Source: an uncultured Gemmatimonadota bacterium (GTDB lineage: Bacteria > Blakebacterota > Blakebacteria > Blakebacterales > Blakebacteraceae). Taken from it: a stretch of DNA of 64,000 nucleotides. The stretch's first letter is position 1; the number at the start of each line of letters is the position of its first letter. The position numbers and the translations under genes were made by a program. The notes beneath the pieces were generated by a model. It was given only the letters and a program-made list of their open reading frames with translations. It searched no databases and was not told where the DNA came from. Below, piece after piece: positions 16,040 to 52,328 of this stretch. Where the stretch lies: NCBI GenBank assembly GCA_964576115.1, contig CAZNUA010000012.1, positions 1-64,000 of the forward strand. Direction: 5' to 3'.

Positions 16040-16711
16040 TCAGCCGGTCAGCAATCCATGGTCGCGCTTCACCTGCCAGGCGGTTGCGAAACTGCCGTAG
16101 GTTCCACGCGCCAGCTCTGAAGCGGAGAGATCGGGATCTCTCGCGATCATGACCCACATGTCAGCCCGGTAACTCGGACCTGAACGAACCCGTTCCCGGT
16201 AGGTGGTGTGTCGACGGGCCAGTTCAGCCTCCGACAGGACATCACCCCGGCGATCTCGCAGCACTCCGGCTGGAATACGCAGACAGGTCCCGGAGAAGCG
16301 GGGATCTTCTCCTCTGCGGCGGATATGGAAATCAGAGCCGGCCCGCAGGAGATCGATTCGGGAACCCGTGTGAAGCTTCATGAAGCGCAGGAAGCGACGA
16401 TCTCCGTTCAGCCATTGCGATACCGCAGTCCAGAAGGCGCGCACGCGATCAGAGGATTCGTGGAATACAGCCCGATAGAGACGATCGGCATTGATCCGAG
16501 GGTGGTGGATATCCAGCCAGCTGATAAGGATCGAAAGTACACGCAGATCGTCGCCATCCATTGCCTCACGAGAGGCTGCGATCAGAGTGTCCTCGATATT
16601 GGGATTCTCTGCCGGCCGGGCTGCGAAGTTCAGGCCGATGCCGACCATGGCTCCAGTCAGATTCTCACCGGTCGGCAGCTCCGTTGGTGTCGTCACACGT
16701 TTATAGGCCAT
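16040..16711 (-). CDS. Hypothetical partner protein with a putative C-terminal helix-turn-helix
   Basis: 223 aa; starts 1 nt after the nucleotidyltransferase stop; C-terminal DLSASELARGTYGSFATAWQVK looks like an HTH. Confidence 0.7.
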   Translation of the reverse strand: MAYKRVTTPTELPTGENLTGAMVGIGLNFAARPAENPNIEDTLIAASREAMDGDDLRVLSILISWLDIHHPRINADRLYRAVFHESSDRVRAFWTAVSQWLNGDRRFLRFMKLHTGSRIDLLRAGSDFHIRRRGEDPRFSGTCLRIPAGVLRDRRGDVLSEAELARRHTTYRERVRSGPSYRADMWVMIARDPDLSASELARGTYGSFATAWQVKRDHGLLTG

Positions 16712-16712
16712 A

Positions 16713-17240
16713 TCACAGACGTTCCTTCAGATCGTCCAGAACCTCCCGGACATGAGTCGGCCAATCCGGATTCCCGTCGTGTTCCTCGAGCCAGGGGGTG
16801 ACCTCATCGATCTCTTCTCTCGTCGGCGCCAGGGCCAGACAGTCCGGCAGATCGATACCCCGGTCGCAGAGTGCGAAGAGCTTGCACCGCAGCAGATCAA
16901 GGCGACCCAGCGTTCGGATCGTCAGGGCCTGTCCGACGAAGACAGGCTGAAGATGTTCCTGCCATCCATCCGGGAGATCACGCTTGAGTGACATCGGGCC
17001 GTTGTTCAACCAGTCGGTGTCGAGTGCAAGACCGTTCTCCCTGCACCATTGTGCGAAACTCCGGGCCGCTTCGATGATCTCGACGGGTATTTCGGGATCG
17101 AGGATATCCAGATCACGTGTGTGTCGGGATATGATCCCCAGCAGTCCCAGGGTTGCGGCACCGACAGCGATACACTCGAATAGTAACTCTCGATCACGCA
17201 GAAAACGATCAAACGCCGGGATGATCTCCTCAGGATTCAT
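16713..17240 (-). CDS. DUF6036-like (AbiEii-superfamily) nucleotidyltransferase
   Basis: AVGAATLGLLG...RHTRDLD NTase signature; DWLNNGP, LPDGW and KLFALCDRGIDLPDC. Confidence 0.8.
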   Translation of the reverse strand: MNPEEIIPAFDRFLRDRELLFECIAVGAATLGLLGIISRHTRDLDILDPEIPVEIIEAARSFAQWCRENGLALDTDWLNNGPMSLKRDLPDGWQEHLQPVFVGQALTIRTLGRLDLLRCKLFALCDRGIDLPDCLALAPTREEIDEVTPWLEEHDGNPDWPTHVREVLDDLKERL

Positions 17241-17274
17241 AGTATCAGTATAACTGATACTTAGGTTATGTCAA
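17241..17274 (-). promoter_or_regulatory. Sigma70 promoter of a leaderless transcript with an overlapping inverted-repeat operator
   Basis: Minus strand TTGACA-16 bp-TATACT-6 nt-ATG; inverted repeat AGTATCAGT-ata-ACTGATACT at 17241-17261. Confidence 0.85.
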
Positions 17275-17332: not shown

Positions 17333-17368
17333 AAAACACGGGCCCGCCGGATGGCTCCGGCGGGCCCG
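17333..17368 (-). terminator. Intrinsic terminator of the nuoEFG-like/glutamate-synthase-like operon
   Basis: 13-bp stem CGGGCCCGCCGGA/TCCGGCGGGCCCG, 4-nt loop, followed by TGTTTT on the minus strand. Confidence 0.8.
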
Positions 17369-17404: not shown

Positions 17405-18985
17405 TCAGCCGAGGATCTCGGCCACTTCTTCGGCGTCGACCTCGGTGATGTAGGGCAGGCCGGTCACATCGGCCGACTCGCGGGTCAGGCAGGCCACATC
17501 GTTGCGCTCGATGTGATCGAGCGTGAACTTGCGCTCCCCGGCCATGATCTGACGCACTCCCTGAGCCAGACGGCTGAAGTAGGTGTACACCCCCATGGCG
17601 CCGGTGGGCAGTTCGGCGAACCGGTCGGCACCCACCAGCTCCTTGAGTTCGGGAGCGGTGATGAAGACCTCTTCCTTCGACTCGCCGAAACGGCCCACGA
17701 AGACCGGCAGCATGCCCTCGTCCATGTGCCGACCGAGGGTCTTGCCCACCATGGCCGCGGCCAGCGGCGAACGCGCCATCGCGATCAGCTTGGTGTAGGG
17801 AGCGCCCAGGGCCAGGCCCTTGAAGATATTGTCCTCGAAGGTGAATCCACCGGCGAAGGCGATGTTGGGAACGAACTCGCCCTTGTCATCGAGGTGCTTG
17901 CACATCTGCCAGGTCAGGCTGTGCAGCTCGACCACCGGCACGCCCCACTCGTTCATCATCCGCCAGGGGCTCATACCGGTGCCGCCGCCGGCTCCGTCGA
18001 CCGTGAGCAGGTCGAGCTTGGCCAGCGAGGCGAACTTCACGGCCCGGGCCAGGTCGGCCGGACGGTAGGCGCCGGTCTTCAGGGTGACCTGCCTGGCGCC
18101 GGCGGCCCGCAGCTGCTCGACCCGCTCCATGAAGCTCTCGAGGCTGACCATGCCGACCCGGCTGTGGCGCTCGAACTCGTGGAACACACCGGCCTTGAAC
18201 GACTCGATGACACCCGGGTCGGTCGGGTTGGGCAGCACCACGTAACCGCGGCTGTAGAGTTCCTGGGCCTTCTCGAGGTTGGTGATCTTGACCTCGCCGC
18301 CGATGTCCTTGGCGCCCTGACCCCACTTCATTTCGACCGTCTCCACGCCCAGCTTCTCGATGGCGTACTCCTGCACGCCCAGGCGGGTGTCCTCGACGTT
18401 GGATTGCAGCACAACCGTGCCCTTGCCGTCGATCTGCCAGTTGCGGTAGGGCGTGATCCGGCTCTCCAGTCCCGGCGATTCGACCACCCGGCCGTTCTTG
18501 ATGGTGGCGCTCATGTCCATTCCGACCACGTTCTCGCCGATGGTGAGCGGCACTCCCCACAGGGCGCAACCGATGGACAGACCTTCCCAGTTCTGGGCGG
18601 CGACGTTGGTCGACCCCATACCGGCCACGACGAAGGGCAGGCCGGCGGTGAATGTGTTCTCGGCGCCGATCTCGCGCTCGAGCACCACGTTCGGAAAAAT
18701 GGCCTTGTCGCTGTCGGCTTCGATACCGTGCGCTCCGACGGCCGTACCCAGAATGGTCAGATGACCGTAGTCGATCGGGTACTCCTTCTCCGAGGCGGCG
18801 GTAATGATCCCGAAGGGCTGGGGATAGATCATTTCGGCCCCGCGGTAGGCCGACTTGCCGATCTCACACATTCCGATGCAACCGTCAACACAGGTGGCGC
18901 ACATCCCCGAAATAGTGGTGACGGCGTCCTCGGTGCGGTTCTTCGAAAGGGTGGCCGCGCTGGCGTTGATCTTGGTGTAAGACAT
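17405..18985 (-). CDS. Stand-alone FMN-binding glutamate synthase family protein (GltB2-like)
   Basis: EMKWGQGAKDIGGE, TVDGAGGGTGMSP, AFAGG and MARSP FMN-barrel motifs; N-terminal CATCVDGCIGMC; GGAGG RBS before ATG 18985. Confidence 0.88.
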   Translation of the reverse strand: MSYTKINASAATLSKNRTEDAVTTISGMCATCVDGCIGMCEIGKSAYRGAEMIYPQPFGIITAASEKEYPIDYGHLTILGTAVGAHGIEADSDKAIFPNVVLEREIGAENTFTAGLPFVVAGMGSTNVAAQNWEGLSIGCALWGVPLTIGENVVGMDMSATIKNGRVVESPGLESRITPYRNWQIDGKGTVVLQSNVEDTRLGVQEYAIEKLGVETVEMKWGQGAKDIGGEVKITNLEKAQELYSRGYVVLPNPTDPGVIESFKAGVFHEFERHSRVGMVSLESFMERVEQLRAAGARQVTLKTGAYRPADLARAVKFASLAKLDLLTVDGAGGGTGMSPWRMMNEWGVPVVELHSLTWQMCKHLDDKGEFVPNIAFAGGFTFEDNIFKGLALGAPYTKLIAMARSPLAAAMVGKTLGRHMDEGMLPVFVGRFGESKEEVFITAPELKELVGADRFAELPTGAMGVYTYFSRLAQGVRQIMAGERKFTLDHIERNDVACLTRESADVTGLPYITEVDAEEVAEILG

Positions 18986-19034
18986 TGTGACTCCTCCTGA
19001 AGCGCCCATGCTCACCGGGCTGCTGATGAAGCTG

Positions 19035-19760
19035 TTACTCTTCTCGACAGATATGCCCGGTTGCGGGCAGGTAGTCCCCTTCGGGACGCACACACGTTCC
19101 ACACTCCGGCGGCATCCAGCACTGTTGATCGTCGTACACCTCGGCGCACGACGGACTGAAGTTCAGACAGCCGCTGCAGATCGTTGTTTCGGCACTCGGT
19201 CCCTGACAGCGCAGCTGGCATGCCGGACAGATGTACATGCACCCGCCGCAGTGGCGGCAGATGTCGGAAAGTTCGTCGAAAGCGGTGGTGATGCGTCGGT
19301 CGGGTCCCCGGCCGACGAAACCGATGGCCCGGGCCATCATCTGCTCCTCACACATCCTCACGCAGAGGCCGCAGAGCAGGCAGTCCTCGTTCTCGCGGCG
19401 GAAGCGCGCGGTGGTGACACCGTGGGCCGAAGCGAGGTCCTGGACGACTTTCGAGGCCGGGGTCGAACAGACCATCAGCTCGAGGATCATCTTGCGGGCC
19501 TTGATGATCCGGGCCGAATGGGTACGGACCTGCATACCCTCCTCGCACGGGTAGGTACACGACGAGACGACCTTGGTCTTGCCCGGAGGGCCGATCTCGA
19601 CGATGCACAGCCGGCAGGCGCCGTAGCTCGAAAGTCCTTCGACCGAACAGAGCGTCGGGATGTTGATCCCGTACAGCTTGGCGGCCTCGAGGATGGTCGT
19701 CCCCTCGTACACCTCGACGGGCAGACCGTTGAGGGTCAGCGAGATCGTCTTCACGCTCAT
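19035..19760 (-). CDS. Short NuoG/HydA-N-terminal-like Fe-S subunit (2Fe-2S + 2x4Fe-4S + Cys-rich tail), with no catalytic domain
   Basis: IPTLC...GACRLC...VSSC; CLLCGLCVRMC; CRHCGGCMYICP; 241 aa; ATGA overlap with the NuoF-like gene. Confidence 0.88.
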   Translation of the reverse strand: MSVKTISLTLNGLPVEVYEGTTILEAAKLYGINIPTLCSVEGLSSYGACRLCIVEIGPPGKTKVVSSCTYPCEEGMQVRTHSARIIKARKMILELMVCSTPASKVVQDLASAHGVTTARFRRENEDCLLCGLCVRMCEEQMMARAIGFVGRGPDRRITTAFDELSDICRHCGGCMYICPACQLRCQGPSAETTICSGCLNFSPSCAEVYDDQQCWMPPECGTCVRPEGDYLPATGHICREE

Positions 19761-21628
19761 TCTCCACCTCCCGAGACAACGCTGATCGCTCCCTGGGGAC
19801 AGACTTCGAGGCAGGCTCCGCACTTGATGCAGACATCAGGATCGATGACGTGGACGGCGTCCTTCTCACCGCTGATCGCATCGGCGGGACAGACCTTGAA
19901 GCAGGCGTGGCATCCGTCACAGAGCGATTCCTGGATCTGGTAGCGGATGAGAGTGGTGCAGACACCAGCCGGACAGCGGCGTTCGGTGATGTGGGCCTCA
20001 TACTCGTCCCGGAAGTACCGCAGGGTCGAGAGAACGGGATTGGCGGCATTCTGCCCCAGCCCGCACATGCTGGCTTCGTTCACCGTATGCCCCAGCTCCT
20101 CGAGCAGCTCGAGCTGTTCGAGGGTGCCGCGCCCCTCGCAGATGTCGTCGAGGATCTCGCGCATCCGCTGGGTTCCCTTGCGGCAGGAATAACACTTGCC
20201 GCACGATTCCTGTTCGAGGAAACGGGTGAAGTACCGGGCGATATCCACCATGCAGGTGGATTCGTCCATCACGATCATTCCCCCCGAACCCATGATGGTG
20301 CCGGCTTCGGCCAGGGCTTCGAAGTCGATCGGCAGGTCCATGAGTTCGGCGGGCAGGCAGCCGCCGGCGGGGCCGCCGGTCTGGATTCCCTTGAACTCCT
20401 TGCCGTTCGGTATGCCGCCGCCGATGTCGTACACGAGCTGGCGGATGGTCGTTCCCATGGGGACTTCAACCAGGCCGGTGTTCTCGACCTTGCCGACCAG
20501 GGAGAAAATCTTCGTGCCCTTGCTGCCCTCGGAACCTATCGAGGAGAACCACCCGGCCCCCCGGGTGATGATGTGCGGCACGCTGGCCCAGGTTTCGACG
20601 TTGTTGATGACCGTGGGCTTGTTGCGGTAGCCGGACTGGGCGGGGAAGGGGGGGCGCTGTTTCGGCTCGCCCGTGCGTCCTTCCAGGGATGCGATCAGGG
20701 CAGTCTCCTCGCCACAGACGAACGCCCCGGCTCCCATGACGACTTTGAGATCGAAAGCGAAGCCGCTGCCGAGAATACCTTCACCGAGCAGACCGGCTTC
20801 GCGGGCCTGTTCCACCGCCCGGGTGATGTTGCGGACCGCGATCGGGTACTCGTGCCGGACGTAGACGAAGCCCTCTGAAGCACCGATGGCATAGGCGCCG
20901 ATGCACATCCCTTCGATCACCCGGTGCGGATTGCCTTCGAGGATTCCCCGGTCCATGAAAGCCCCCGGGTCGCCCTCGTCGGCGTTGCAGACGATGTACT
21001 TCGGCTCGCCCGGATTCTGGCGGCAGATACTCCATTTGCGTCCGGTCGGGAAACCGGCTCCGCCCCGACCCCTGAGACCGGAGTCGAGGATCTCCTGCAC
21101 GACCGCCTCGGGATCCATGTCGGTGAGCACCCGGGCCAGGGCTTCGTACCCGCCGAGGACGAAAAAATCATCGATCGATTCGGGGTCGATACGCCGATTT
21201 TCCTCGAGCAGCAGGCGGTCCTGATGCTTGTAGAAGGGGATGTCCTTCTCGTAGGGAACGGGCTGGCCGGTATCGGGGTGCGTGTACACGAGGCGGTCGA
21301 TGATTTCGCCGGCCCCGACAGTGCGTTCCAGGATGGTCGGAACATCAGCCGGCTTGACACCCCCGTAACAGATTCCGGCGGGATCGATGGTGACGACCGG
21401 GGCCAGGGCGCAGAAGCCGTGGCAGCCGGTACACCGGAAGGTGACCCGATCCTCCAGCCCCTGCTCCTTGATCTGCGCCCGGAAGGCATCGGCGACTTCG
21501 CCGGCGCCGCTGGCAACACACCCGGGACCGGTGCACACGGTAATGATGTCCCGGGCACTTTCCCTTGCCTGCTCCAGAGAAGTCCGGGCCTGTTTCAGCT
21601 CGTCGGGAGAAGAGATTCTGCCTGTCAT
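19757..21628 (-). CDS. NuoF/HydB/HndC-like NAD(H)/FMN-binding diaphorase subunit
   Basis: N-terminal CTGPGC/CTGCHGFC; GLRGRGGAGFPTG; CNADEGDPGAFMDR; GAGAFVCGEETAL; SCGKCYSCR; C-terminal 2x4Fe-4S. Confidence 0.95.
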   Translation of the reverse strand: MTGRISSPDELKQARTSLEQARESARDIITVCTGPGCVASGAGEVADAFRAQIKEQGLEDRVTFRCTGCHGFCALAPVVTIDPAGICYGGVKPADVPTILERTVGAGEIIDRLVYTHPDTGQPVPYEKDIPFYKHQDRLLLEENRRIDPESIDDFFVLGGYEALARVLTDMDPEAVVQEILDSGLRGRGGAGFPTGRKWSICRQNPGEPKYIVCNADEGDPGAFMDRGILEGNPHRVIEGMCIGAYAIGASEGFVYVRHEYPIAVRNITRAVEQAREAGLLGEGILGSGFAFDLKVVMGAGAFVCGEETALIASLEGRTGEPKQRPPFPAQSGYRNKPTVINNVETWASVPHIITRGAGWFSSIGSEGSKGTKIFSLVGKVENTGLVEVPMGTTIRQLVYDIGGGIPNGKEFKGIQTGGPAGGCLPAELMDLPIDFEALAEAGTIMGSGGMIVMDESTCMVDIARYFTRFLEQESCGKCYSCRKGTQRMREILDDICEGRGTLEQLELLEELGHTVNEASMCGLGQNAANPVLSTLRYFRDEYEAHITERRCPAGVCTTLIRYQIQESLCDGCHACFKVCPADAISGEKDAVHVIDPDVCIKCGACLEVCPQGAISVVSGGGE

Positions 21629-22170
21629 TGTGTTTCCTCGGCCCGTTCGCGATCGAGACGACGAAGCAGTCGCGGCACCTTACGGGAAGACATGTTGCCG
21701 TGGTACTCGCCATCGATGAGAACAAGAGGTCCCATTGCGCAAGCTCCCACACAGGCGACCGTTTCCAGCTCATATTCCCGGTCGGGGGTGGTCTGTCCGG
21801 CGCAGATGCCCAGCTGCCGCTCGAATTCCTTGAGAACCTGAGGGCCGCCGCGGACATGACAGGCGGTCCCCATACAGATCGTACAGGTGTGCCTGCCGGG
21901 AGGATTCAACTTGAAAGATCGGTAGAACGTTGCGGTTCCGAAAATGTCGATGGGGGGGATGTTCAGGCGCTCGGCGATGTATTTCATGGCGGGTACCGGC
22001 AGGTAACCCAGAATGTCCTGTGTATCCAGAAGAATGGCGATCAGTTCACCGCGGTCATGCCGATGATCCTCGAGGACAGCATCGACCTTGGCTTTCATGT
22101 CCTCGATATCGGCGGCCGGGTTGGATACGGCTGTACGGTCGGTGGAGCTTGCAGATGACATTCTGTACAT
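21625..22170 (-). CDS. NuoE/HydC/HndA-like 2Fe-2S subunit
   Basis: GYLP, ATFY, CMGTACHVRG and CVGACAMGP; start uncertain (22170, 22161 or 22098). Confidence 0.92.
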   Translation of the reverse strand: MYRMSSASSTDRTAVSNPAADIEDMKAKVDAVLEDHRHDRGELIAILLDTQDILGYLPVPAMKYIAERLNIPPIDIFGTATFYRSFKLNPPGRHTCTICMGTACHVRGGPQVLKEFERQLGICAGQTTPDREYELETVACVGACAMGPLVLIDGEYHGNMSSRKVPRLLRRLDRERAEETQ

Positions 22171-22613
22171 CCTTCCCCGGTGAGGAAAGGTCAGCGGTGC
22201 AAAGGGGTGCTTACGGGAAGCACCCCTGCGATACGACGCACAGTAACAATCGGAAGCGCCCGAACAGATGTCAACCATTTCAGGTCCGATTATCTGAAAT
22301 AAGGAAACGGGTGTTTTTCGGGGTCCGAGATATTTTTCAGGATGATGAGACCGGCCTGCTTCAACTGTCCTTCCGACCGGCGTGCCGCTACCTGTTGCCG
22401 GGAGGGCGGAATCCGGAGGAGGAACGACCGGCAGGTGGTGGGCGCAGAGAGCGCGGGGATGCCAAAAGTCCGAACCGGTAGTACCTTATATGTCTGGGAT
22501 TCGTATTGAAGGACGTTCCACTGCACCCGTAGTGTTCCGGTGCAGAGGGATCGGTGGGCTGTGCTGGATGGCCGGGGATCGTGCGGGAAACACCGTGTGG
22601 AGAAGGAGCCGTT

Positions 22614-23966
22614 ATGCCCGAAGCGGATGGACAGGCAGACCGGACCCGGCCCGACGGGAACGGCTGCGAGGAAACGGAATTCGATGCCCTGAGACGGGAG
22701 GTCGAGCGCTACCGGGCCGTTTTCGATGTGACCCGGGCCCTGGGGGGAACGCTCGATCTCGACCAGCTCCTCAACCTGATCATCGAGAAGATCAGCACCG
22801 TCATGGACGCGGACCGTTCCAGTCTCTTCCTGATCGACTGGGAGACAGAGGAACTGTGGTCGAAAGTCGCCCAGGGAGTCCGGTTCATGGAACTGCGCTT
22901 CCCCATGAGCGCCGGTCTGGCCGGGGCGGTCGCCACCACCGGCGAGCCGCTGAACATTCCCGACGCCTACGAGGACGAGCGCTTCAATCAGGAGTGGGAC
23001 AAGAAGACCGGCTACCGCACCCGTTCGGTTCTCTGTGTGCCGATGACCAACAAGGCGGGGGAGCGGATCGGTGTCATCCAGGTTCTGAACAAGGGGGGCG
23101 ACGGCGTCTTTACCGACGATGACCAGGAGATGCTGTCGGCCCTGGCGGGGATGATCGCGGTGGCGGTGGAGAACTCCCGGCTCTACGAGGATCAGAAACA
23201 GACCTTCATCTCGTTCGTCGAGACTCTCTCAACCGCGATGGATGCCCGTGACCCGATCACGGCTGGTCACTCGACCAGAGTGACCGACTATGCCGTGGCG
23301 ATCGGCGAACAGCTCGGGTATTCCGAAAAGCAGCTCGAGGTTCTGAACGCCGCAGCCCTGATGCACGACATCGGCAAGATCGGGGTACCCGAAGTGGTGC
23401 TCTTCAAGGACGGGCGGCTCGATGATGAAGAGTACAAGATCATCCAGACCCACGCCCTGCACACCCTCAACATCCTCGACAAGATCCATTTTACGCGGGA
23501 TTACGAGAATATCCCCATGATGGCGGCTACCCATCACGAACGGGTCGACGGCACCGGCTATCCCCTGGGATTGCGCGGCGACGATATCCCCGAAGAGGGG
23601 CGGGTCATGGCGGTGGCCGATATCTTCGACGCCATCACCAGCCGTCGTCATTACCGCGACCGGATGAACTTCGGCAAGGTCCTGCGGGTACTCGACGAAG
23701 AAGCCGCCGGCGGACATCTCCAGACCGATTTCCTCACGGCTTTCAAGGCTCTGCCCCTGAGCCGGGTCGTGGCCATCCTCGAGGCGGACAACACCGAGCT
23801 GGTGCCCGAGGAAGACATGAAAACATTCGGTGCGTACACCCTCGGTGAGCTGCAGGAGATCATCGAGAAGGATGAAGAAGAACGGAGTGATGTCGAGTAT
23901 GATCTCCTGGTTCGTTTCGGCTGCTGCTACGAACGAACCGCCCCCGGCCACGAGGAGATGGACTGA
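22614..23966 (+). CDS. GAF + HD-GYP cyclic dinucleotide phosphodiesterase
   Basis: GAF motif DKKTGYRTRSVLCVP...QVLNK; GHSTRV, HDIGK, HHERVDGTGYP and ADIFDA. Confidence 0.92.
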   Translation: MPEADGQADRTRPDGNGCEETEFDALRREVERYRAVFDVTRALGGTLDLDQLLNLIIEKISTVMDADRSSLFLIDWETEELWSKVAQGVRFMELRFPMSAGLAGAVATTGEPLNIPDAYEDERFNQEWDKKTGYRTRSVLCVPMTNKAGERIGVIQVLNKGGDGVFTDDDQEMLSALAGMIAVAVENSRLYEDQKQTFISFVETLSTAMDARDPITAGHSTRVTDYAVAIGEQLGYSEKQLEVLNAAALMHDIGKIGVPEVVLFKDGRLDDEEYKIIQTHALHTLNILDKIHFTRDYENIPMMAATHHERVDGTGYPLGLRGDDIPEEGRVMAVADIFDAITSRRHYRDRMNFGKVLRVLDEEAAGGHLQTDFLTAFKALPLSRVVAILEADNTELVPEEDMKTFGAYTLGELQEIIEKDEEERSDVEYDLLVRFGCCYERTAPGHEEMD

Positions 23967-25382: not shown

Positions 25383-25886
25383 ATGGTGCGCGATGATGTC
25401 CGCGAAGAGGCCGTCCGGGCCTTCACGCTCGGATTCCGCTGTCAGAAAGCGGGCGAGATCGAGCGGGCGGTCTATGCCTATCGACGCTCGCTCGAACTGC
25501 TCCCCTCGGCCGAAGCCCACACCTTTCTCGGCTGGGCGCTCTCCTTTCAAGGCCGGTTGGAAGAAGCCGTCGCCGAGTGTCGCAAAGCCATCGAACTCGA
25601 TCCCACCCTCGGGAACACCTATAACGATCTGGGGGCCTACCTGATCGAACTCGGCCGGCCCCGCGAGGCGGTGGTGTGGCTCGAAAAGGGACTGGCGGCG
25701 GTGCGCTACGATTCCCACTGCTATCCCTGGTTCAATCTCGGCCGGGCTCACGGCGCTCTGGGGAACCAGCGCCAGGCGCGTATCTGCTACCGCCGCGCGC
25801 TCGAGGCCGATCCGGCCTTCGTCCCCGCCCTGCTGGCCCTCAAGGGTGCGGTCCTGCCGGTTGCCTGCGAGCCCCGCGAGGGCTGA
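25383..25886 (+). CDS. Tetratricopeptide repeat protein
   Basis: AEAHTFLGWALS, GNTYNDLGAYL and PWFNLGRA TPR helices. Confidence 0.85.
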   Translation: MVRDDVREEAVRAFTLGFRCQKAGEIERAVYAYRRSLELLPSAEAHTFLGWALSFQGRLEEAVAECRKAIELDPTLGNTYNDLGAYLIELGRPREAVVWLEKGLAAVRYDSHCYPWFNLGRAHGALGNQRQARICYRRALEADPAFVPALLALKGAVLPVACEPREG

Positions 25887-25956
25887 AAGGCCCGTCGCAC
25901 AGCACCTCTCCGACTGCCACTTGACAGATCGGCCGGAAACGATTCTCATAGCTTCC

Positions 25957-27780
25957 ATGGGAATCCGCTACCTCGACGGGACACGGCTGCAGCGTATCTT
26001 CATCGCCGCTGCCAACTGGGTCAACGCCCGCCGCGAACACCTCAACGCCATCAATGTCTTCCCCATTCCCGATGGTGATACGGGGACGAACATGGCTGCC
26101 ACCCTGACTTACGGGGTCGACGGTATCGCCCACCTCGAACATCCCAGTCTCGATGAGGTGCGCCGGATTCTGGGCCGGACAGTTCTGATCGGCGCCCAGG
26201 GCAATTCCGGTTTCATCCTGGCCCAGTTCATGCGCGGCTTCCTCGACGGCATTGCCGCCGGCACCCGGCGCATCCATCGCGAGGAACTGGGAGCGGCCTG
26301 TCAGAACGGCTTTCGCCGGGCGTACGAGGCGGTCCTCGAACCGGTCGAGGGCACCATCCTGACCGTCATGCGGGAGTGGGCCCGGACAGTGGAGGCTCTC
26401 TCGGCCGAACTCCGGGACCTCGGCGAGATCCTCACCGGAGCTCTCGAACGGGCCCGCGCCGCCCTGGCCGAGACCCGCGAGCAGATGCCCCTGCTGCGCG
26501 AACACGAAGTGGTCGATGCCGGAGCGCAGGGATTTGTTCACATGTTGGAGGGGATCAACGAGTTCATCCGCAAGGGAGCGGTCCACCCCGGCCGTCCTCC
26601 GGCTCTGGAGCGAACCCCGGCTTCGATCGTGGATGCCGCCGCACAGGCCGGGGAGATCGGCAATCGCTACTGCACCCAGGCTCTGCTCGAAGAACCGACC
26701 TGTGGAGTGGCCGAGCTCCGGGCCCTGCTCCAGGACCTGGGTGACTCGCTGATCGTGAGTGGGGGGTCAGACCTGCTCAAGGTGCACCTGCACACCGACG
26801 ATCCCGAAGAACTCTTCACCCTGCTTGACGGCTACGGCACGCTGCTCCAGACCCATGCCGAGGACATGCAGTCGCAGACCGAAGCGGTGGCCGGCCAGCG
26901 GCGGTCGATGCGCCGGCGGGCGGCCAGGGGCGAAGTGGCGATCGTGATGGATTCGACCTGCGATCTGGATCCCGATGTGGCTGCGACCGCGGGGATCGGC
27001 ATCGTACCCTGTTACGTCACCTTCGGTGAGGACCGCTACCGCGACCGGGTCGAACTCGACACCACCCGTTTTTACGAGATGTGTGCGACCCGGGCCGAAC
27101 ATCCCCTCTCATCCTCTCCGAGCCTGGCCGACTTCCAGACCGTCTACGACGAGGCTCTCACAACCCACGACCACGTCCTCTCGCTCTGCCTGACGAGTAA
27201 AATGAGCGGGGTCTACCAGGTGGGGGCCCAGGCCGCCCGGGAGCTCGATCCGGAACGGATCACGGTGGTGGATACCGAAGTCTTCAGCCTCGGTCTGGGC
27301 TACATGGGGCTCCAGCTGGCCCGGCGTGCCAACGAGGGAGCGGCCGTGCCCGAACTGCTGCATCACCTGCAGGAAATGCGGGAGCACTCCCGCCTGTACT
27401 GCATGACCGATACTCTGGAATATGTCATCAGAGGCGGGCGGGTCGGAAAGCTGCGTGGTTTCGTGGGTAAGACCCTGGGGCTGCTGCCGGTCCTCAGCCT
27501 GCAGAGCGGCCGTCTCGAACCGGTGGGAGCGGCCCGGGGCGCCGAGAGGGGTATGGCGGATATCCTGCGTCGCCTCGATGATGAGATCCCCGAGGGAATG
27601 CCGGTCTGCGGGGTTGTCGGGCATGGGGGAAATCCCGGGATGGCCGGGAAGATCGGCGCCGAATTCGAGCGACGGTACAACCCGGTCGAAATGGTCTACC
27701 TGGAAATCGGTCCGGCGGTCGGGGTGCATGCCGGTCCGGGGGTGTGGGGCATCTTCTACATCGCCGCCGATACCCTGTAA
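25957..27780 (+). CDS. DAK2 + DegV fusion (fatty acid kinase FakA-FakB-like)
   Basis: LNAINVFPIPDGDTGTNM, GAQGNSG, PVEGTILTV, VVDAG and KVHLHT; then DegV motifs DSTCD, SSSP, SKMSG, RGGR and VGVHAGPG. Confidence 0.9.
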   Translation: MGIRYLDGTRLQRIFIAAANWVNARREHLNAINVFPIPDGDTGTNMAATLTYGVDGIAHLEHPSLDEVRRILGRTVLIGAQGNSGFILAQFMRGFLDGIAAGTRRIHREELGAACQNGFRRAYEAVLEPVEGTILTVMREWARTVEALSAELRDLGEILTGALERARAALAETREQMPLLREHEVVDAGAQGFVHMLEGINEFIRKGAVHPGRPPALERTPASIVDAAAQAGEIGNRYCTQALLEEPTCGVAELRALLQDLGDSLIVSGGSDLLKVHLHTDDPEELFTLLDGYGTLLQTHAEDMQSQTEAVAGQRRSMRRRAARGEVAIVMDSTCDLDPDVAATAGIGIVPCYVTFGEDRYRDRVELDTTRFYEMCATRAEHPLSSSPSLADFQTVYDEALTTHDHVLSLCLTSKMSGVYQVGAQAARELDPERITVVDTEVFSLGLGYMGLQLARRANEGAAVPELLHHLQEMREHSRLYCMTDTLEYVIRGGRVGKLRGFVGKTLGLLPVLSLQSGRLEPVGAARGAERGMADILRRLDDEIPEGMPVCGVVGHGGNPGMAGKIGAEFERRYNPVEMVYLEIGPAVGVHAGPGVWGIFYIAADTL

Positions 27781-29059: not shown

Positions 29060-29920
29060 TCAATCCGCATCTTGAGAAAATCTCGCGGCGATCCGGGTAT
29101 CGAGTTTATCCAGCCATTCGTCGGGCACGTGCAGGTCCCCGGTTCCGATCCCCAGGCTGAGATCGGGCTTGCGGGTGCCGTGGAAGTCGCTTCCCCCGGT
29201 CCGCACCAGATCGAATTCGGCGGCCAGCTCGTCATAGAAGCGGCTCTGCTCGGGGGTGTGTGAGGGGTAGAGGACTTCGATTCCTTCCAGGCCCTCCGCT
29301 GCGAGTTCGGTCACGAACCGCCGCAGAGCCTCTCCTGCCCGGCCTGTCTGACAGGGGTGGGCCAGAACGGGGATGCCCCCTCCGGACCGGATGAGCTCGA
29401 AAGCCCGGGCCGGTTCGTATTTGAGTTTGGGCTCGTAGGCGGGGGCGTCGACACCCACGTAACGATCGAAGGCGTCATCGAGATCTTCGGCGGCTCCTGC
29501 CGCGCAGAGGGTCTCGGCGATGTGGGGACGGCCGATCACATCGCTCCCGGCCCGGGCCGCAACCTGCTCCAGCGTGATGGAAATTCCCATCGCCTGCAGG
29601 TTGGCGATGATCTTCGGATTGCGCTCGGCCCGGGCGGTTTTGAGCCGTTCGATCCCGGCCGCGAACGCAGGCCGGGCCGGATCGATGCCGTAACCGAGAA
29701 GGTGCAGGGTGCCGCCGGTGAACCGGGCCGAGATCTCGATACCCGGCACGACCCGCAGTCCCAGGCGCCGGCCGGCGGCCAGGGCTTCGGGCACGCCGTC
29801 GCAGGTATCGTGATCGGTGATGCCAACGGCTGAGAGGCCGGCCTCGCAGGCGGCTGCGACCAGTTCGCCCGGAGTCAGGGTGCCGTCGCTGGCGGTGGTG
29901 TGGGTGTGCAGGTCGATCAT
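29060..29920 (-). CDS. PHP-domain phosphoesterase (TrpH/YciV-like)
   Basis: DLHTHTTASDG, ITDHD, GRPH, LAHP and GGSDFHG. Confidence 0.9.
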   Translation of the reverse strand: MIDLHTHTTASDGTLTPGELVAAACEAGLSAVGITDHDTCDGVPEALAAGRRLGLRVVPGIEISARFTGGTLHLLGYGIDPARPAFAAGIERLKTARAERNPKIIANLQAMGISITLEQVAARAGSDVIGRPHIAETLCAAGAAEDLDDAFDRYVGVDAPAYEPKLKYEPARAFELIRSGGGIPVLAHPCQTGRAGEALRRFVTELAAEGLEGIEVLYPSHTPEQSRFYDELAAEFDLVRTGGSDFHGTRKPDLSLGIGTGDLHVPDEWLDKLDTRIAARFSQDAD

Positions 29921-29945
29921 GGATCGAACCGCGTTCCAGCCCGGT

Positions 29946-30683
29946 CTACTCCTCCTCGGGCGGGCGGCGGCCCGAGACCAGCAGGGCGCCCGCTTCGCGG
30001 AAATTCTTGAGCTGTTCGAGGCTCCGGAACCACTTCCCGTCCACTTCGGCGGGCGGTTCGGATTCGTCGCGGATCCGCTGGTCGCCCACATCGATGAAGC
30101 CGCAGGCGCGGAAGAGAGTGTTGTACTGATCGGCTCCCTTGCAATGCATCGGCACCTCGATCAGATCGCTCCAGTGGTGGACCCACTCGTTCTCGAGGTA
30201 GAAATGCATGGCGACGAAAAAGGTGCCGCCGGGCTTGAGAACCCGGAACATCTCATGGCCGACCTTGACCTGGTTGGGATAGTAGTAAAAGGATTCGATA
30301 GTGACGATGTGATCGACACTCGCATCCTCGAGAGGCAGTTCCTCGGCGCCGGCGGTCTCGAACCGCAGGTTGGCGGGATTGTCGCTGTGAGCTGCGGCCC
30401 TCTCGATCATCTTTGGAGCCAGATCGATCCCGATGATCTGGCCGCCGGAGATGACATCAGTGGCCAGGTGGCGGCTGAACCAGCCGTCGCCGCAGGAGAG
30501 ATCGAGAACAATGTCTTTGTCCTGAACCGGCAGTTCGGCGGCTATCGCCAGGCCCAGGTGCTGGTGGTTCTCCTGCATCAAAGCCACCTCATCCTCGGTG
30601 GCGAGGGCATCGAATGTCTCGCGCAGACGCTCCCACGTCTCAGGGGTGCGGTTCTGCTCGTCTGGGCTCGCGTGCTCGGTCAT
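29946..30683 (-). CDS. Class I SAM-dependent methyltransferase
   Basis: VLDLSCGDG, GIDLAPKMI, AEELP and RVLKPGG; GGAGG RBS. Confidence 0.85.
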   Translation of the reverse strand: MTEHASPDEQNRTPETWERLRETFDALATEDEVALMQENHQHLGLAIAAELPVQDKDIVLDLSCGDGWFSRHLATDVISGGQIIGIDLAPKMIERAAAHSDNPANLRFETAGAEELPLEDASVDHIVTIESFYYYPNQVKVGHEMFRVLKPGGTFFVAMHFYLENEWVHHWSDLIEVPMHCKGADQYNTLFRACGFIDVGDQRIRDESEPPAEVDGKWFRSLEQLKNFREAGALLVSGRRPPEEE

Positions 30684-30761
30684 GGGTCCTCCGAAGAAAT
30701 CGTAACCGGTTCTCTCTATCTTGCCCCGATAGAAAGCCCAACTTATAGTGCCTGCGCGACC

Positions 30762-31691
30762 ATGCCAATACCTGATGAGAAGAGAGCGGGACCGGGGCGC
30801 AAACCTTCCTGGCTGCTGACCCGCGCCCCCGGCGGTCCGGCCTATGCCGCTCTGAAGAAAAAACTCCACTCTCTCGAGCTGCATACAGTTTGCGAGGAGG
30901 CCAACTGCCCCAACCAGGGGGAGTGCTGGGGCACCGGAACCGCCACGGTCATGATCCTGGGCGATATCTGTACCCGGGCCTGCCGTTTCTGCGACGTCAG
31001 GAGCGGCGATCCGGCAGGTATGGTGGACGACGCCGAACCGGAGAAGGTCGCCGCCATGCTGGCCGATCTCGATCTACGCTACGTGGTCGTTACCAGCGTG
31101 GACCGCGACGACCTGCCCGACGGCGGGGCCGGCCATTTCGCCCGCACCATCACGGCCATCCGAACCCGCCATCCCGACCTGATGCTCGAAGTTCTCATCC
31201 CCGACTTCCGCGGCTCACACCCGGCTCTGACAAACGTCATCGCCGCCGGTCCCGAGGTGGTCGCACACAATGTCGAAGTGGTCCCGCGTCTGACCCGCAC
31301 GGCGCGTGACCGGCGGGCGTCGTGGGAACTCTCGCTCCGGGTTCTGGCCGACATCAAGGTTCTGGCGCCGGATGTGCGCCGGGCTCCGGTGTGGACCAAA
31401 TCGAGTCTCATGGTCGGACTGGGCGAGAGCGAGCCCGAGATGGCTGCGGCCATGGACGAGCTGCGTTCGGTCGGAGTGGATTTTCTGACCGTCGGTCAAT
31501 ACCTGCAGCCCAGCCGCAGACACCTGGCCGTGCAGGAGTATGTCACCCCCGAGCAGTTCGAGCGCTACCGGACCATGGGGGAAGAGAAGGGTTTCGCCTA
31601 TGTGGCGAGCGGGCCGCTGGTGCGCTCGTCCTACCGGGCCGGAGAATACTTCATCGCGGCCGTCATCGAATCCGGTCGGGCAGTTACCTGA
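30762..31691 (+). CDS. lipA: Lipoyl synthase
   Basis: CEEANCPNQGEC, CTRACRFC, TSVDRDDL, GQYLQP and RSSY. Confidence 0.96.
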   Translation: MPIPDEKRAGPGRKPSWLLTRAPGGPAYAALKKKLHSLELHTVCEEANCPNQGECWGTGTATVMILGDICTRACRFCDVRSGDPAGMVDDAEPEKVAAMLADLDLRYVVVTSVDRDDLPDGGAGHFARTITAIRTRHPDLMLEVLIPDFRGSHPALTNVIAAGPEVVAHNVEVVPRLTRTARDRRASWELSLRVLADIKVLAPDVRRAPVWTKSSLMVGLGESEPEMAAAMDELRSVGVDFLTVGQYLQPSRRHLAVQEYVTPEQFERYRTMGEEKGFAYVASGPLVRSSYRAGEYFIAAVIESGRAVT

Positions 31692-47077: not shown

Positions 47078-48277
47078 ATGAAACACCGGCTCGAGGAGCG
47101 GATTCTCGAAGTTGAAGAAGCGATCGTCCTGGGTGCAGCGAGCGGTTATGCCGCCCCCCGTCTGGGGCGGGCCGCGCGTCAGTGCCGGAGTCTGGACGAC
47201 CTGCTCGGCAGGTCCGACGCCGACCTCTGCCGGCTGCCCGGCATCGGCGAAAAAACCCTCCCCCACGTGCGCCGGATCGCGGATATCGATCTCGAACGCG
47301 AGCAGGCCCGGCTGGACAGACTCGGTCTCACGGTACTGGTGCCCGGCCGGCCCGGCTGGCCGCCGCTCATGAGCGAAAACATCTCGGTTCCCCCGCTGGC
47401 CCTGTACGTGCGCGGCGATCCCGCCCCGCTGGGCGAGGCGGCCGTAGCAGTGGTCGGCACCCGGAAAGCGTCTCCGATCGGGTTGCGGGTCGGCGAGGGG
47501 CTCGGTTTCGATCTCGGCCGGATACCGCTCACCGTTGTCTCGGGACTGGCGGTCGGTATCGACGCCGCGGCTCACAGGGGCTGTCTGGCGGGAAGCGGGA
47601 GGACCGTTGCGGTCCTGGCGCACGGGCTCGATCGGGTTCATCCGGGCCAGAACCGGAAGCTCGCCGACGGGATCCTCGATGGCGGCGGCGCGTTGGTCTC
47701 GGAATATCACCCGGGAGTCAAACCGCTGGCCGAGACCTTCGTGCCCCGCAACCGCATTATCGCCGGCCTGAGTCTGGCCACGGTGGTGGTGGAGGGGAAA
47801 GAGGGCAGTGGAGCCCGGCATACGGCCAGGTTCGCCGGCGACTTCGACCGCGAGGTTCTGGCCGTTCCCGGTTCCCCTCTCGACGACCGGTCGAACCTGC
47901 CGAACGAACTCATCCGCACCGGGGCGACGCTGTGCCGCGGAGCCTACGATGTCATCAGCGTCATCGGCGACTGGGAGATCGGAAGCCTGCGCGAGGCCCT
48001 GGCGGACCGGGCCGCATTCCTGCGCCGGCAGGCGGCCGATGCCCTGCGGGGACTGGGACCCGAGGCGGATCGGATCGTCAGGATTCTGGCTGACGAACCG
48101 CTTCACATCGACGGCATCTGCCGGTTCACCGGCATCGCCGCCGAGCGGGTTCTGAACCTGCTGTTGCAGCTCGAGATCGAGGGCATCGTGGAACAGCTTC
48201 CGGGGATGCGCTACATGCCGATATACAACCCGCCCGATCCCGAACCGGAAGAGGAGACACTCCGGCGGATCACGTGA
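47078..48277 (+). CDS. dprA: DNA-processing protein DprA
   Basis: AVVGTR, VSGLAVGID, FVPRNRIIAGL and AVPG; C-terminal winged helix. Confidence 0.93.
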   Translation: MKHRLEERILEVEEAIVLGAASGYAAPRLGRAARQCRSLDDLLGRSDADLCRLPGIGEKTLPHVRRIADIDLEREQARLDRLGLTVLVPGRPGWPPLMSENISVPPLALYVRGDPAPLGEAAVAVVGTRKASPIGLRVGEGLGFDLGRIPLTVVSGLAVGIDAAAHRGCLAGSGRTVAVLAHGLDRVHPGQNRKLADGILDGGGALVSEYHPGVKPLAETFVPRNRIIAGLSLATVVVEGKEGSGARHTARFAGDFDREVLAVPGSPLDDRSNLPNELIRTGATLCRGAYDVISVIGDWEIGSLREALADRAAFLRRQAADALRGLGPEADRIVRILADEPLHIDGICRFTGIAAERVLNLLLQLEIEGIVEQLPGMRYMPIYNPPDPEPEEETLRRIT

Positions 48278-49568
48278 CGGCAGTATCCCGCAGACCGGCC
48301 GAACGGGCGTGCGCTTCGAGCCCTTCGAGACGGGCCAGACGCTCGACATCGCGCCGGAAACCGGCCGGGGGGGGTACCGGTCCGCTCCGGTACCAGGTGC
48401 GCACCCGCAGGAAGGTGAAGACCGAAAGCCCGCCGCTCCAGCGGGCGGTGCCGCCGGTGGGCAGAACATGGTTGGGACCGGCCCCGTAATCGCCGAAGAC
48501 CTCGGCCGCACCGGGGCCGATGAAAAGGGCTCCGTAGTGCCGCACCCGGCCGGCGAACCCGTCCGGATCGGCGAGATGGAGTTCGAGGTGTTCGGGAGCC
48601 AGACAGTCGCAGAGTCCGGCGGCCTGCTCCCGGTCCCCGGCTACGACGGCGAAACCGTTTCCGAGGGCGGCCCGGGCGGTCTCGCGAGCCGGCAGGTCGG
48701 CCAGCCGGCGGTGCAGCGCTCCCTCCACCGCCTCGACGAGAGAGGGCTCGAGGGCAATCAGAATCGGCCGGGCGTCGGGAGCGTGCTCGGCCTGGGCCAG
48801 CAGGTCGGCCGCGATGAGTTCGGGATCGCTGCCGGCGTCGGCGACGACGACCAGTTCCGAGGGACCGGCCAGGCTGTCGATTCCGACCCGGTCGCTGACC
48901 AGGTACTTGGCGGCGGTGACCCAGCGGTTGCCCGGGCCGACCACGACATCGCAGCGGGGTACCGCACGCGCTCCGCAGGCCAGGGCGGCGACGGCGTGGG
49001 CGCCGCCGGCGGCGAGCAGGGCCCTGGCTCCGGCAATTGCGGCCGCCGCCAGGGTGACGGCGGCGGGGCGCGGCGAGGCGACCCAGACCTCTTCGACCCC
49101 GGCCGTGCGGGCCGTGATGGCTGTCATCAGGACCGAGGAAGGCAGGGGGTAGCGGCCCCCGGGAGCGTAGCAGCCGGCCCGTTCGACCGGGACCGCTTCC
49201 TGCCCGGCGAGGCCGGCCTCGATTCCGATCTCGAATTCGGCCAGCGAGCCGCGCTGCTTCGCGGCGAAGGCGCGGATGCGGCTCGCGGTCCGTTCGAGCA
49301 CCCCCCGGTCGTCGGCATCGAGGGCAGCCAGGGCCGCTTCCAGGGCGGAGCGGTCGAAGATGAGGGGGGCGCCCGGCTCGATATCTCCGAGTCGCTCGGC
49401 GTGCGAGCGCAGGGCGGCCTCGCCTCCGCTCTCGACCTCGGCTACGATCCGGGCCGCCTCGGGCACGATCGAGCGATCGAGAGCCGTGCCGGCGTGCGAA
49501 CCGGTACCGTGTGAGGGCAACAGGGCGACCTCGGCCGGCGTGAGCCGGGGCAGCAGGGGAGCGTTCAT
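48270..49568 (-). CDS. hisD: Histidinol dehydrogenase
   Basis: YAPGG, VGPGN, AGPSE, DLLAQAEH, APEHL, DYGAGPNHVLPT and EGLEAH. Confidence 0.95.
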   Translation of the reverse strand: MNAPLLPRLTPAEVALLPSHGTGSHAGTALDRSIVPEAARIVAEVESGGEAALRSHAERLGDIEPGAPLIFDRSALEAALAALDADDRGVLERTASRIRAFAAKQRGSLAEFEIGIEAGLAGQEAVPVERAGCYAPGGRYPLPSSVLMTAITARTAGVEEVWVASPRPAAVTLAAAAIAGARALLAAGGAHAVAALACGARAVPRCDVVVGPGNRWVTAAKYLVSDRVGIDSLAGPSELVVVADAGSDPELIAADLLAQAEHAPDARPILIALEPSLVEAVEGALHRRLADLPARETARAALGNGFAVVAGDREQAAGLCDCLAPEHLELHLADPDGFAGRVRHYGALFIGPGAAEVFGDYGAGPNHVLPTGGTARWSGGLSVFTFLRVRTWYRSGPVPPPAGFRRDVERLARLEGLEAHARSAGLRDTAVT

Positions 49569-51708: not shown

Positions 51709-52328
51709 GCCGCACCCCCTTGCGGTCCGGTTCCGAGCCACCGTTGCAGCAGAGCGATGCCCCAGCCCCCGGAGAGTTCGGGGTGAAACTGGCAGGCCAG
51801 GACGCCGCCGCGCTCCAGGGCCGCCACGAACCGGCCTCCGTGATCGGCATGGGCACAGCGCCAGCCGGCGGGAGCGCGTTCGAGCCGGTAGGAATTGGCG
51901 AAGTAGGCATGGCCCGGTTCGAGCAGGGTGCAGTCCCGGTCGGGGGTGATCAGGTTCCAGCCCAGCTGCGGTACCGGGACCGAACCGGGAAAGCGGATGG
52001 CGGTGCCGGGGACGGCTCCGAGTCCCGGCACACCGGGACTCTCGTCACTGCCCTCTGTAAGCAGCTGCAGGCCCAGACAGATCGCCAGCAGGGGCGTGCC
52101 GGCTGCGATCCGTTCGCCGAGAGCCGCTCCCGTGCCGTCGGCTTCGAGGCGCTCCATGGCCCGGGCGAAAGCGCCGACTCCGGGCAGAACGACCCGGGGG
52201 GCTGTGCGCACCTCGGCCGCCGAGCGGGCCAGCCGGACCGCGGCTCCGGCCCGTTCCAGACCGGCCCGGACCGAGGCCAGATTGGCTGTGCCGGTGGGTA
52301 CCACCACGACCTGCGGTTCACAGGTCAT
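51702..52328 (-). CDS. hisH: Imidazole glycerol phosphate synthase glutaminase subunit
   Basis: LPGVGAF, ICLGLQLL, VPQLGWN and QFHPE. Confidence 0.94.
   Translation of the reverse strand: MTCEPQVVVVPTGTANLASVRAGLERAGAAVRLARSAAEVRTAPRVVLPGVGAFARAMERLEADGTGAALGERIAAGTPLLAICLGLQLLTEGSDESPGVPGLGAVPGTAIRFPGSVPVPQLGWNLITPDRDCTLLEPGHAYFANSYRLERAPAGWRCAHADHGGRFVAALERGGVLACQFHPELSGGWGIALLQRWLGTGPQGGAAC

Follow-up and report, generated by a model that had tools for sequence, protein, structure and literature searches.

A widespread operon places a Bfu-type electron module beside a relative of the glutamate synthase FMN domain: a candidate NAD(H)- and ferredoxin-linked enzyme of glutamate metabolism

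The Bfu family of electron-bifurcating enzymes is defined by an invariant BfuBC core, according to the main text of Schut et al. 2022 (PMC9304861). Here we describe a four-gene operon that encodes such a core beside a protein related to glutamate synthase. It lies in a stretch of 64,000 nucleotides (nt) from an uncultured bacterium of the Blakebacterota (contig CAZNUA010000012.1, positions 1 to 64,000), referred to below as the window. The genes, named E, F, G and X in the direction of transcription, encode counterparts of BfuC, BfuB and a short BfuA, and a TIM-barrel protein of the flavin mononucleotide (FMN) type. Judging from the sequences, the chances are about even that the operon encodes an uncharacterised Type-2-like Bfu enzyme that interconverts 2-oxoglutarate plus ammonia and glutamate via NAD(H) and ferredoxin.

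Several described systems resemble parts of this locus. WorABCSL, the tungsten aldehyde oxidoreductase of Acetomicrobium mobile (Type 2 Bfu, 9MQX), likewise has BfuC, BfuB and a short BfuA, but its catalytic module consists of the tungstopterin protein WorL and the poly-ferredoxin WorS, where the operon has the FMN barrel X. As described in PMC12318220, WorA is a BfuA of about 245 amino acids (aa) without a His-ligated cluster and relays electrons from the separate catalytic module to the core; its C-terminal part is a four-Cys zinc finger with an adaptor helix, whereas G has eight conserved Cys there. The NiFe-HydABCSL of A. mobile (7T2R/7T30) and the [FeFe] HydABC enzymes (8A6T, 7Q4V, 7P5H) share the BfuBC core but carry a hydrogenase active site, either within a long BfuA or next to it; the operon in the window has no such site. 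The NfnABC/Stn transhydrogenases (9BOV, 9N5U, 8OH5) combine the Bfu core with a part derived from glutamate synthase, a GltD-like NADP(H) domain. In Nfn/Stn this domain is fused to BfuA, and in a long form of the cassette found elsewhere it is fused to F. Nfn/Stn are without a GltB-like FMN subunit, whereas the operon in the window is without a GltD-like domain.

For X the relevant comparison is the FMN domain of GltB and ferredoxin-dependent glutamate synthase (GltS; PF01645; 1EA0, 1OFD, 1LLW), with which it shares an FMN TIM barrel, a QGAK motif and a DGxGGTGxSP flavin-phosphate region. Unlike GltS, X has no glutaminase, central or GXGXG domain and no [3Fe-4S] ligands, and its match to PF01645 is partial. 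An FrhB-fused, F420-type GltS-like protein (P0262) shares 36% identity with X (residues 26-397), and both have an N-terminal Cys motif. The electron donor would also differ, as GltS uses GltD, ferredoxin or FrhB and X would use the Bfu module.

We identified F as the subunit that ties the operon to bifurcating enzymes. Its Pfam domains are an N-terminal 2Fe-2S_thioredx piece (PF01257, 24-102), Complex1_51K (3.7e-47), SLBB, NADH_4Fe-4S (1.2e-32) and two Fer4 domains (564-616). F aligns nearly gap-free with NiFe-HydB (7t2r_B, E 3.5e-238) over residues 29-616 (588 residues). Other solved relatives are HydB (8a6t_B, 7q4v_B), WorB (9mqx_B, 2.1e-219) and NfnB (9bov_B, 9n5u_B); complex-I NuoF chains are weaker matches (1e-113) covering residues 150-550 only. 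Motifs of the BfuB FMN/NAD(H) domain are present (GRGGAGFPTG at 187, CGKCYSC at 476, CGLG at 522), as are a Cys/His/Cys-x4-Cys site (TCMVD 458, AHI 545, RCPAGVC 551) and a C-terminal ferredoxin domain (C..C..C...CP at 570 and 600). Non-bifurcating BfuB/NuoF homologues are described in the text of PMC9304861 as lacking the extra clusters, namely the N-terminal [2Fe-2S], the Cys/His site and the C-terminal 2x[4Fe-4S]; F has ligands for all of these, the ligands being observed and the cofactors predicted. An earlier sequence-only reading had classed this subunit as HydB/BfuB-type, and the classification is borne out, since the best solved relatives of F are the B subunits of proven bifurcating enzymes. 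Every motif quoted in that reading is present in F, including DEGDPGAFM at 217 and GGPAGG at 418. The same genome has a second HydB-sized NuoF-like gene (639-aa open frame) outside the window (contig C25:30030-30545), so the organism probably has another Bfu-type enzyme.

The partners of F fit the same family. E matches PF01257 at 2.9e-45, and its best solved relatives are HydC 7p5h_C (6.2e-42) and 8a6t_C. Its Cys 99, 104, 140 and 144 form the pattern C-x4-C...C-x3-C that is usual for the NuoE-like [2Fe-2S] subunit BfuC. G contains Fer2_4 and Fer4_7 domains, and its best solved relative is WorA (9mqx_A, 247 aa, 5.6e-35, G residues 6-213). Among 60 aligned G sequences, 19 Cys are invariant and one is conserved at 98%. 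They include the ligands of a [2Fe-2S] cluster (38, 49, 52, 68) and of two [4Fe-4S] clusters (127, 130, 133, 137 and 168, 171, 174, 178). G can be assigned only tentatively to the Type 2 BfuA, defined by [2Fe-2S] plus two [4Fe-4S] clusters, no His-ligated and no fifth cluster, and a separate catalytic subunit. Its [2Fe-2S] and 2x[4Fe-4S] ligands are invariant and a His-cluster motif is absent, but eight further Cys lie in its C-terminal stretch (181, 185, 195, 198, 205, 214, 220, 223; 98-100% conserved in the 60 sequences). These could bind one or two extra metal centres and could form a bridge to X. By sequence comparison E, F and G are homologous to subunits of proven bifurcating enzymes.

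X is less easily placed. Its Pfam match to Glu_synthase (PF01645) is partial, extending over residues 279-397 and profile positions 185-300 (116/369) with 50.6 bits against a curated cut-off of 20.4; typical split-type FMN subunits reach about 475 bits against this profile. X has at least 8000 relatives, most of them annotated merely as 'FMN-binding glutamate synthase family protein'. Identity across many bacterial phyla and some archaea is 64-92%; for the best 120 relatives, which are 524-541 aa long and come from many bacterial phyla and archaea, it is 66-92%, with 97-100% of the length aligned. Bacterial and archaeal X proteins are about 65-70% identical, a degree of conservation so extreme that it speaks for a central role.

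Conserved motifs link X to GltS. In 35 sequences, conservation of at least 90% was found for the N-terminal C29-x2-C32-x3-C36-x3-C40, the only Cys cluster motif of X, and for the nearly invariant K220-x-G-Q223-G-A-K226 (K220-W-G in the X of the window). We aligned the X family with GltB, using P0262 as an intermediate (MAFFT L-INS-i); the GltB FMN domain was represented by five canonical gltB genes mapped to 1ea0/1llw numbering. Here Q223-K226 of X align with the QGAK of GltB IKIAQGAK, which maps to Q969/K972 of 1llw (Fd-GltS), and we take the lysine of this motif to be the GltS catalytic lysine. Further GltS motifs aligned in X, also at least 90% conserved, are GE, (R/H)H...S(I/L)E, VKL/LKT and DG-x-GGTG-x-SP. 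A profile comparison of the X family with the GltB FMN domain (hhalign) gives E 2.3e-4. The AlphaFold2 model of X, built from the 35-sequence alignment, is an FMN-type TIM barrel with a predicted local distance difference test score (pLDDT) of 85.8 and a predicted TM-score (pTM) of 0.86, residues 1-28 having pLDDT below 50; a Foldseek search with this model lists Fd-glutamate synthase 1ofd first (1.1e-10). By these alignments, X is a distant homologue of the synthase (FMN) domain of GltS. It is not a canonical glutamate synthase, because the [3Fe-4S] ligands, the glutaminase and the GXGXG domain are all lacking. No class-II glutamine amidotransferase domain was found by Pfam in the operon.

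Association of X with the Bfu module is supported by gene order. A genome scan for X gave 598 encoding stretches, and the best 80 loci were examined; their sources include Zixibacteria, Aminicenantes, Planctomycetota, KSB1, Bacillota, Ignavibacteria, Methanoperedens and Thermoplasmatales. Wherever at least 800 nt of upstream DNA are available, G immediately precedes X (73/73 loci). With at least 4200 nt available F is present in 59/60 loci, and with at least 5000 nt E is present in 55/57. The gap between G and X is 0-176 nt in 76/78 measured cases, and F is 51-77% identical to its counterparts in related loci. Synteny this close to universal means that the arrangement is not due to chance. It answers the survey of the four-gene order called for by the sequence-only reading and backs its proposal of a HydB/BfuB module wired to the FMN protein; that reading would have given way had X and the module failed to occur together, and they do occur together. 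Exceptions are L080, without F or E within 7 kb upstream, and L013, without a match to E. At a Zixibacteria locus (L017, 661-2734; 2.9 kb of upstream DNA available) an ELFV dehydrogenase gene rather than F lies just upstream of G-X. A small protein of about 105-175 aa without a Pfam match is encoded between a sigma-54 response regulator and E at L019 (1727-2182) and about 16 other loci; it may represent a shared domain, because its cluster also took in several long proteins.

F occurs in two forms among the 65 loci that could be classified: a short form, as in the window (27 loci), and a long form (38 loci). Long F, of about 1050 aa (for example L019:3123-6299 and L057:3121-6279), is a NuoF with N-terminal 2Fe-2S fused to GltD-like Fer4_20 and Pyr_redox_2 domains, which replace the C-terminal 2x[4Fe-4S]. 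Enzymes with this form may use NADPH in place of ferredoxin.

The link to E, F and G is specific to an X clade with at least 63% identity. In Planctomycetota, X-like paralogues at 57%, 48% and 42% identity have no E, F or G nearby in the six regions examined. The 48%-identical paralogue lies between a gene for a Haem_oxygenas_2-type iron enzyme and one of the RidA/L-PSP imine-deaminase family (L095:1700-4875 and L097:1838-4905; 2/2 loci examined). The 42%-identical paralogue (L098:4512-10401) has a GltD-like gene on either side, and its contig also carries a canonical gltB about 5 kb away. Methanoperedens has a second X paralogue, 45% identical and divergent from the cassette (L010:565-3604), followed by flavin biosynthesis genes for a CTP-dependent riboflavin kinase and DHBP synthase.

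We predict that X, as a stripped-down synthase domain of GltS, takes the place of the hydrogenase, formate dehydrogenase or tungsten module of a Bfu enzyme. NAD(H) would react at the FMN of F, ferredoxin would dock at the C-terminal 2x[4Fe-4S] domain of F, and E would add its [2Fe-2S] cluster to the core. Electrons could then pass through G, by way of its [2Fe-2S] cluster, two [4Fe-4S] clusters and Cys-rich tail, and enter X at its N-terminal four-Cys cluster, from which they would reach its FMN. There 2-oxoglutarate and free ammonia would form 2-iminoglutarate, which would be reduced to L-glutamate, or glutamate would be oxidized in reverse; glutamine would take no part. The place of X as a complex subunit, the cofactors of the G tail and of the N-terminal part of X, the role of ferredoxin, the substrate and the reaction direction are all inferred.

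Neighbouring genes suggest a connection to nitrogen metabolism. We clustered the 749 open reading frames (ORFs) of the 80 loci and named recurrent neighbours. ELFV (glutamate-type) dehydrogenase genes occur in 14/80 loci, in 10 of them no more than 1 kb from the cassette and on its strand. Six are found just past X, one of these 3 nt after it, and at three loci the cassette has such a gene on either side. Sigma-54 response regulators are encoded upstream on the same strand in 16 loci; histidine kinase genes occur in 8 loci and glnA in 3. None of these four kinds of gene flanks the operon in the window.

The distribution of X was compared with that of glutamate synthase (GOGAT). In the phylum of the window, all nine genomes that are at least 80% complete have X and glnA, and none has GATase_2 (PF00310) or GXGXG (PF01493), for which control genomes were positive in 13/14 and 14/14 cases. 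The absence of glutaminase and GltD noted in the sequence-only reading thus holds for the operon, and that of glutaminase extends to the phylum. GATase_2 is also absent from five cassette-bearing genomes of other lineages (0/5). In the genome of the window (93.7% complete) X is the only clear PF01645 match. This genome also has five POR_N matches (2-oxoacid:ferredoxin oxidoreductases), which indicate by homology that the organism has a ferredoxin economy.

In two larger phyla we counted genomes as X-positive if they have an X-family match at E <= 1e-100 and as X-negative otherwise. Among 201 sampled Planctomycetota, canonical large GltB (E <= 1e-30) is present in 3/32 X-positive and 63/169 X-negative genomes. 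Among 151 Acidobacteriota, where the X-negative counts include the unpublished genome G261, it is present in 1/14 versus 47/137, and a typical PF01645 match (E <= 1e-60) in 3/14 versus 69/137. The pooled counts for canonical GltB are 4/58 and 110/306 (Fisher p 2e-6, which overstates the case because the genomes are related). The 11 Planctomycetota genomes with cassette-type X (at least 63% identity) have no canonical GltB and two have the split type. Cassette-bearing genomes thus tend to be without canonical GOGAT, though not always, and most Planctomycetota and Acidobacteriota genomes without the cassette are also without canonical GOGAT. The phyletic pattern fits a replacement of GOGAT by X without proving it. 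A strict rule of GOGAT replacement was considered and rejected, as some X-family-positive genomes carry canonical or split GOGAT. Weak GATase_2 matches in Planctomycetota were archaeal-type split GOGAT in the three cases examined. Split GOGAT loci in this phylum encode a GATase_2-like protein of 372-383 aa (L100:1883-7818, L101:1708-4384; glnA in L100 only) and a protein of 504-542 aa with Fer4 and a full PF01645 domain (L100, L101, L099:2179-3807); these genomes also have X-like genes elsewhere.

A number of observations weigh against a glutamate-forming Bfu enzyme, several of them concerning the kinship of X. The hhalign match is confined to the C-terminal half of X (318-504) with a probability of 44%, and the correspondence of the QGAK motifs is that of the MAFFT alignment, because hhalign aligned residues 318-504 only. 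The [3Fe-4S] ligands of GltS (C-x5-C-x4-C; GltB C400/C406/C411 in alignment numbering) align with Cys-free sequence in X. Matches of X to solved GltS are marginal (sequence search E 0.3, profile against the Protein Data Bank E 0.067), and sequence searches of solved structures gave designed TIM barrels and these marginal matches only. The Foldseek lead of 1ofd is nominal, as the matches that come next, to flavocytochrome b2 and to lactate, glycolate and mandelate oxidases, have values of about 1e-9. VIA-align places flavocytochrome b2, glycolate, lactate and mandelate oxidases and type-2 isopentenyl diphosphate (IPP) isomerase at the top (Z 26-27.6, root-mean-square deviation about 2.9 A, about 297 residues aligned, range 290-319), and GltS is absent among the best 50 matches listed. 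The fold therefore leaves the family of X undecided, because Foldseek and VIA-align do not separate GltS from alpha-hydroxy-acid oxidases. In addition, binding of X to E, F and G is inferred from synteny, ferredoxin coupling is no constant of the family because long F (38/65 loci) has no ferredoxin domain, and ammonia could also be assimilated by the two ELFV dehydrogenases of the genome to which the window belongs. Nor is the anticorrelation with GOGAT complete, since any GATase_2 match is found in 10/32 X-positive versus 67/169 X-negative Planctomycetota.

Energetics are the weak point of the proposed reaction. The couple of 2-oxoglutarate plus NH4+ and glutamate lies at about -0.13 V (-130 mV). 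Since this is above NAD, it fits the usual energetics of Bfu enzymes poorly, and NADH alone suffices for reductive amination. The text of PMC9304861 gives about -280 mV for NADH, -414 mV for H2 and about -500 mV for ferredoxin. The third substrates of the Bfu enzymes considered here lie between NAD and ferredoxin, as H2 does at -414 mV (PMC9304861), or below both, as the aldehyde/acid couple of Wor does at the very low potential of -520 mV (PMC12318220). With the glutamate couple above NAD, either NADH and reduced ferredoxin would both be spent, or NADH would be the mid-potential donor. The former resembles what PMC9304861 proposes for the Rub-Bfu and Nuo-Bfu types, in which both are spent on a favourable reduction. 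The latter would make the complex a bifurcating glutamate dehydrogenase, a version that we consider rather doubtful, in which electrons from NADH are split between 2-iminoglutarate (about -0.13 V) and ferredoxin:
2 NADH + Fd(ox) + 2-oxoglutarate + NH4+ <-> 2 NAD+ + Fd(red) + glutamate.
In the forward direction it would need no ATP to incorporate free ammonia into glutamate, and would yield reduced ferredoxin besides. In reverse, reduced ferredoxin from 2-oxoacid oxidoreductases could pull unfavourable glutamate oxidation in amino-acid fermenters. The Etf-type lactate dehydrogenase uses ferredoxin in a similar way.

The four proteins could instead form the same complex with other chemistry, X acting on another 2-oxo or 2-imino acid, an alpha-hydroxy acid or an acceptor near -400 mV. 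In that case X would resemble GltS merely because the two have an FMN barrel and imine/oxo-acid chemistry in common. An acceptor near -400 mV would suit normal Bfu energetics, as the glutamate couple does not, and the same alternative draws on the VIA-align ranking of oxidases and IPP isomerase, on the 116 matched positions of PF01645, on weak PF01070 (alpha-hydroxy-acid oxidase family) matches in some relatives of X, and on the 48%-identical paralogue placed between imine-deaminase and iron-enzyme genes. X itself has high fold Z-scores with members of this family but no PF01070 match at E <= 0.01, and it conserves the GltS-specific lysine motif QGAK together with three further GltS motifs. 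ELFV dehydrogenase, glnA and sigma-54 regulator genes as neighbours, and the 42%-identical paralogue between GltD-like genes near gltB, also favour glutamate. On balance we find other chemistry somewhat unlikely.

Simpler arrangements were also considered. If E, F and G were a mere NADH wire with no role for ferredoxin, the operon would encode a non-bifurcating, NADH-dependent glutamate synthase that uses ammonia. NADH is thermodynamically sufficient, the long F lacks the ferredoxin domain, and non-bifurcating NuoEF-type modules are known (PMC9304861); but the F of the window has all the BfuB extras that non-bifurcating homologues are described as lacking in that text, and it aligns end to end with proven bifurcating B subunits, which makes a simple wire distinctly unlikely. 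That two unrelated enzymes merely lie side by side, a BfuABC-like module with its partner encoded elsewhere and an independent FMN protein, is highly improbable: the adjacency of G and X holds at every locus with enough upstream DNA, in many phyla and both domains and with short spacers, the operon has no other catalytic gene for the module, and X, though it has a cluster motif, comes without a dedicated electron donor. L080, without F or E, and L017, with an ELFV gene in place of F, are the loci that would suit such a view.

Full-text literature searches turned up no account of a Bfu module combined with a GltB-like subunit. Neither 'glutamate' nor 'GltB' occurs in the main text of PMC9304861, whose Supplementary Table 1, a table of clades, lies outside this search. 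If our reading of a glutamate-linked complex holds, the FMN barrel would be a catalytic module of a new kind within the Bfu family. Many uncultured anaerobes, and the whole small phylum of the window, would then possess a hitherto undescribed enzyme that links carbon, nitrogen and redox metabolism and uses a Bfu core either to form glutamate from ammonia without glutamine or to break glutamate down with the help of ferredoxin. The annotation of ammonia assimilation would change for genomes that seem to lack GOGAT, and the enzyme would show whether a third substrate more positive than NAD can serve the Bfu core. Were the complex a bifurcating glutamate dehydrogenase, it would bring a new thermodynamic regime to Bfu enzymes and a replacement of GOGAT in many anaerobic lineages.

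The layout of the operon is given in Table 1. The four-gene operon of the sequence-only reading is confirmed and lies on the minus strand; confirmed too are its finer details, ATGA overlaps at two junctions (E/F and F/G), a 49-nt gap and a single terminator, which is a strong hairpin. As that reading had also said, no H-cluster, NiFe or Mo/W subunit, amidotransferase or GltD gene adjoins the operon.

Table 1. Genes and junctions of the operon in the window.
Feature	Position (nt)	Strand	Size or basis
E, NuoE/HydC/BfuC-like [2Fe-2S] subunit	21625..22170	minus	181 aa, PF01257
F, HydB/BfuB-like NAD(H)/FMN subunit	19757..21628	minus	623 aa, Pfam domains and motifs
G, short NuoG/BfuA-like subunit	19035..19760	minus	241 aa, Fer2_4 and Fer4_7
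X, FMN TIM-barrel protein, presumed catalytic subunit	17405..18985	minus	526 aa, partial PF01645
E/F ATGA stop/start overlap	21625..21628	minus	direct sequence reading
F/G ATGA stop/start overlap	19757..19760	minus	direct sequence reading
G-X spacer, 49 nt; AGGAGG ribosome-binding site 7 nt before X ATG	18986..19034	minus	
Intrinsic-terminator-like hairpin after X	17339..17368	minus	13 pairs, 12 G-C, 4-nt loop, T-rich tail

Translation of E could begin at ATG 22170 or ATG 22161; the latter is better spaced from an upstream GGAAGG and may be the true start. A promoter scan gave no sigma-70-like site upstream of E, and inspection by eye of 22170-22400, with no software scan for sigma-54, gave no convincing sigma-54 promoter. 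None of E, F, G and X reached an equivalog cut-off in an NCBIfam search, and X had no match at all. The neighbours of the operon are unrelated to it. Upstream is a divergent gene for a 470-aa protein with GAF and HD_5/HD domains (22554-23966, plus strand), which could be a regulator. Directly past the terminator is an 11/12 sigma-70-like promoter (17274..17247), and behind it lies a DUF6036 nucleotidyltransferase gene (16713..17240), overlapped by an ORF of 223 aa that has no Pfam match (region 16040-17274, minus strand); this pair looks like a toxin-antitoxin-type module.

Elsewhere in the window we identified a 644-aa fusion of Dak2, a FakA-like middle domain and DegV (25846-27780, plus strand), a single chain that would combine fatty-acid kinase subunit A with a FakB-type binding protein. 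A lipoyl-synthase-like radical SAM ORF (LIAS_N and Radical_SAM; 29817-31691, plus strand, GTG start) has about 320 N-terminal residues without a Pfam match; its true start may lie further in, because it overlaps a minus-strand ORF (29060..30091). The G+C content is 0.71-0.72 at 48001-54000, compared with 0.60-0.69 in the rest of the window.

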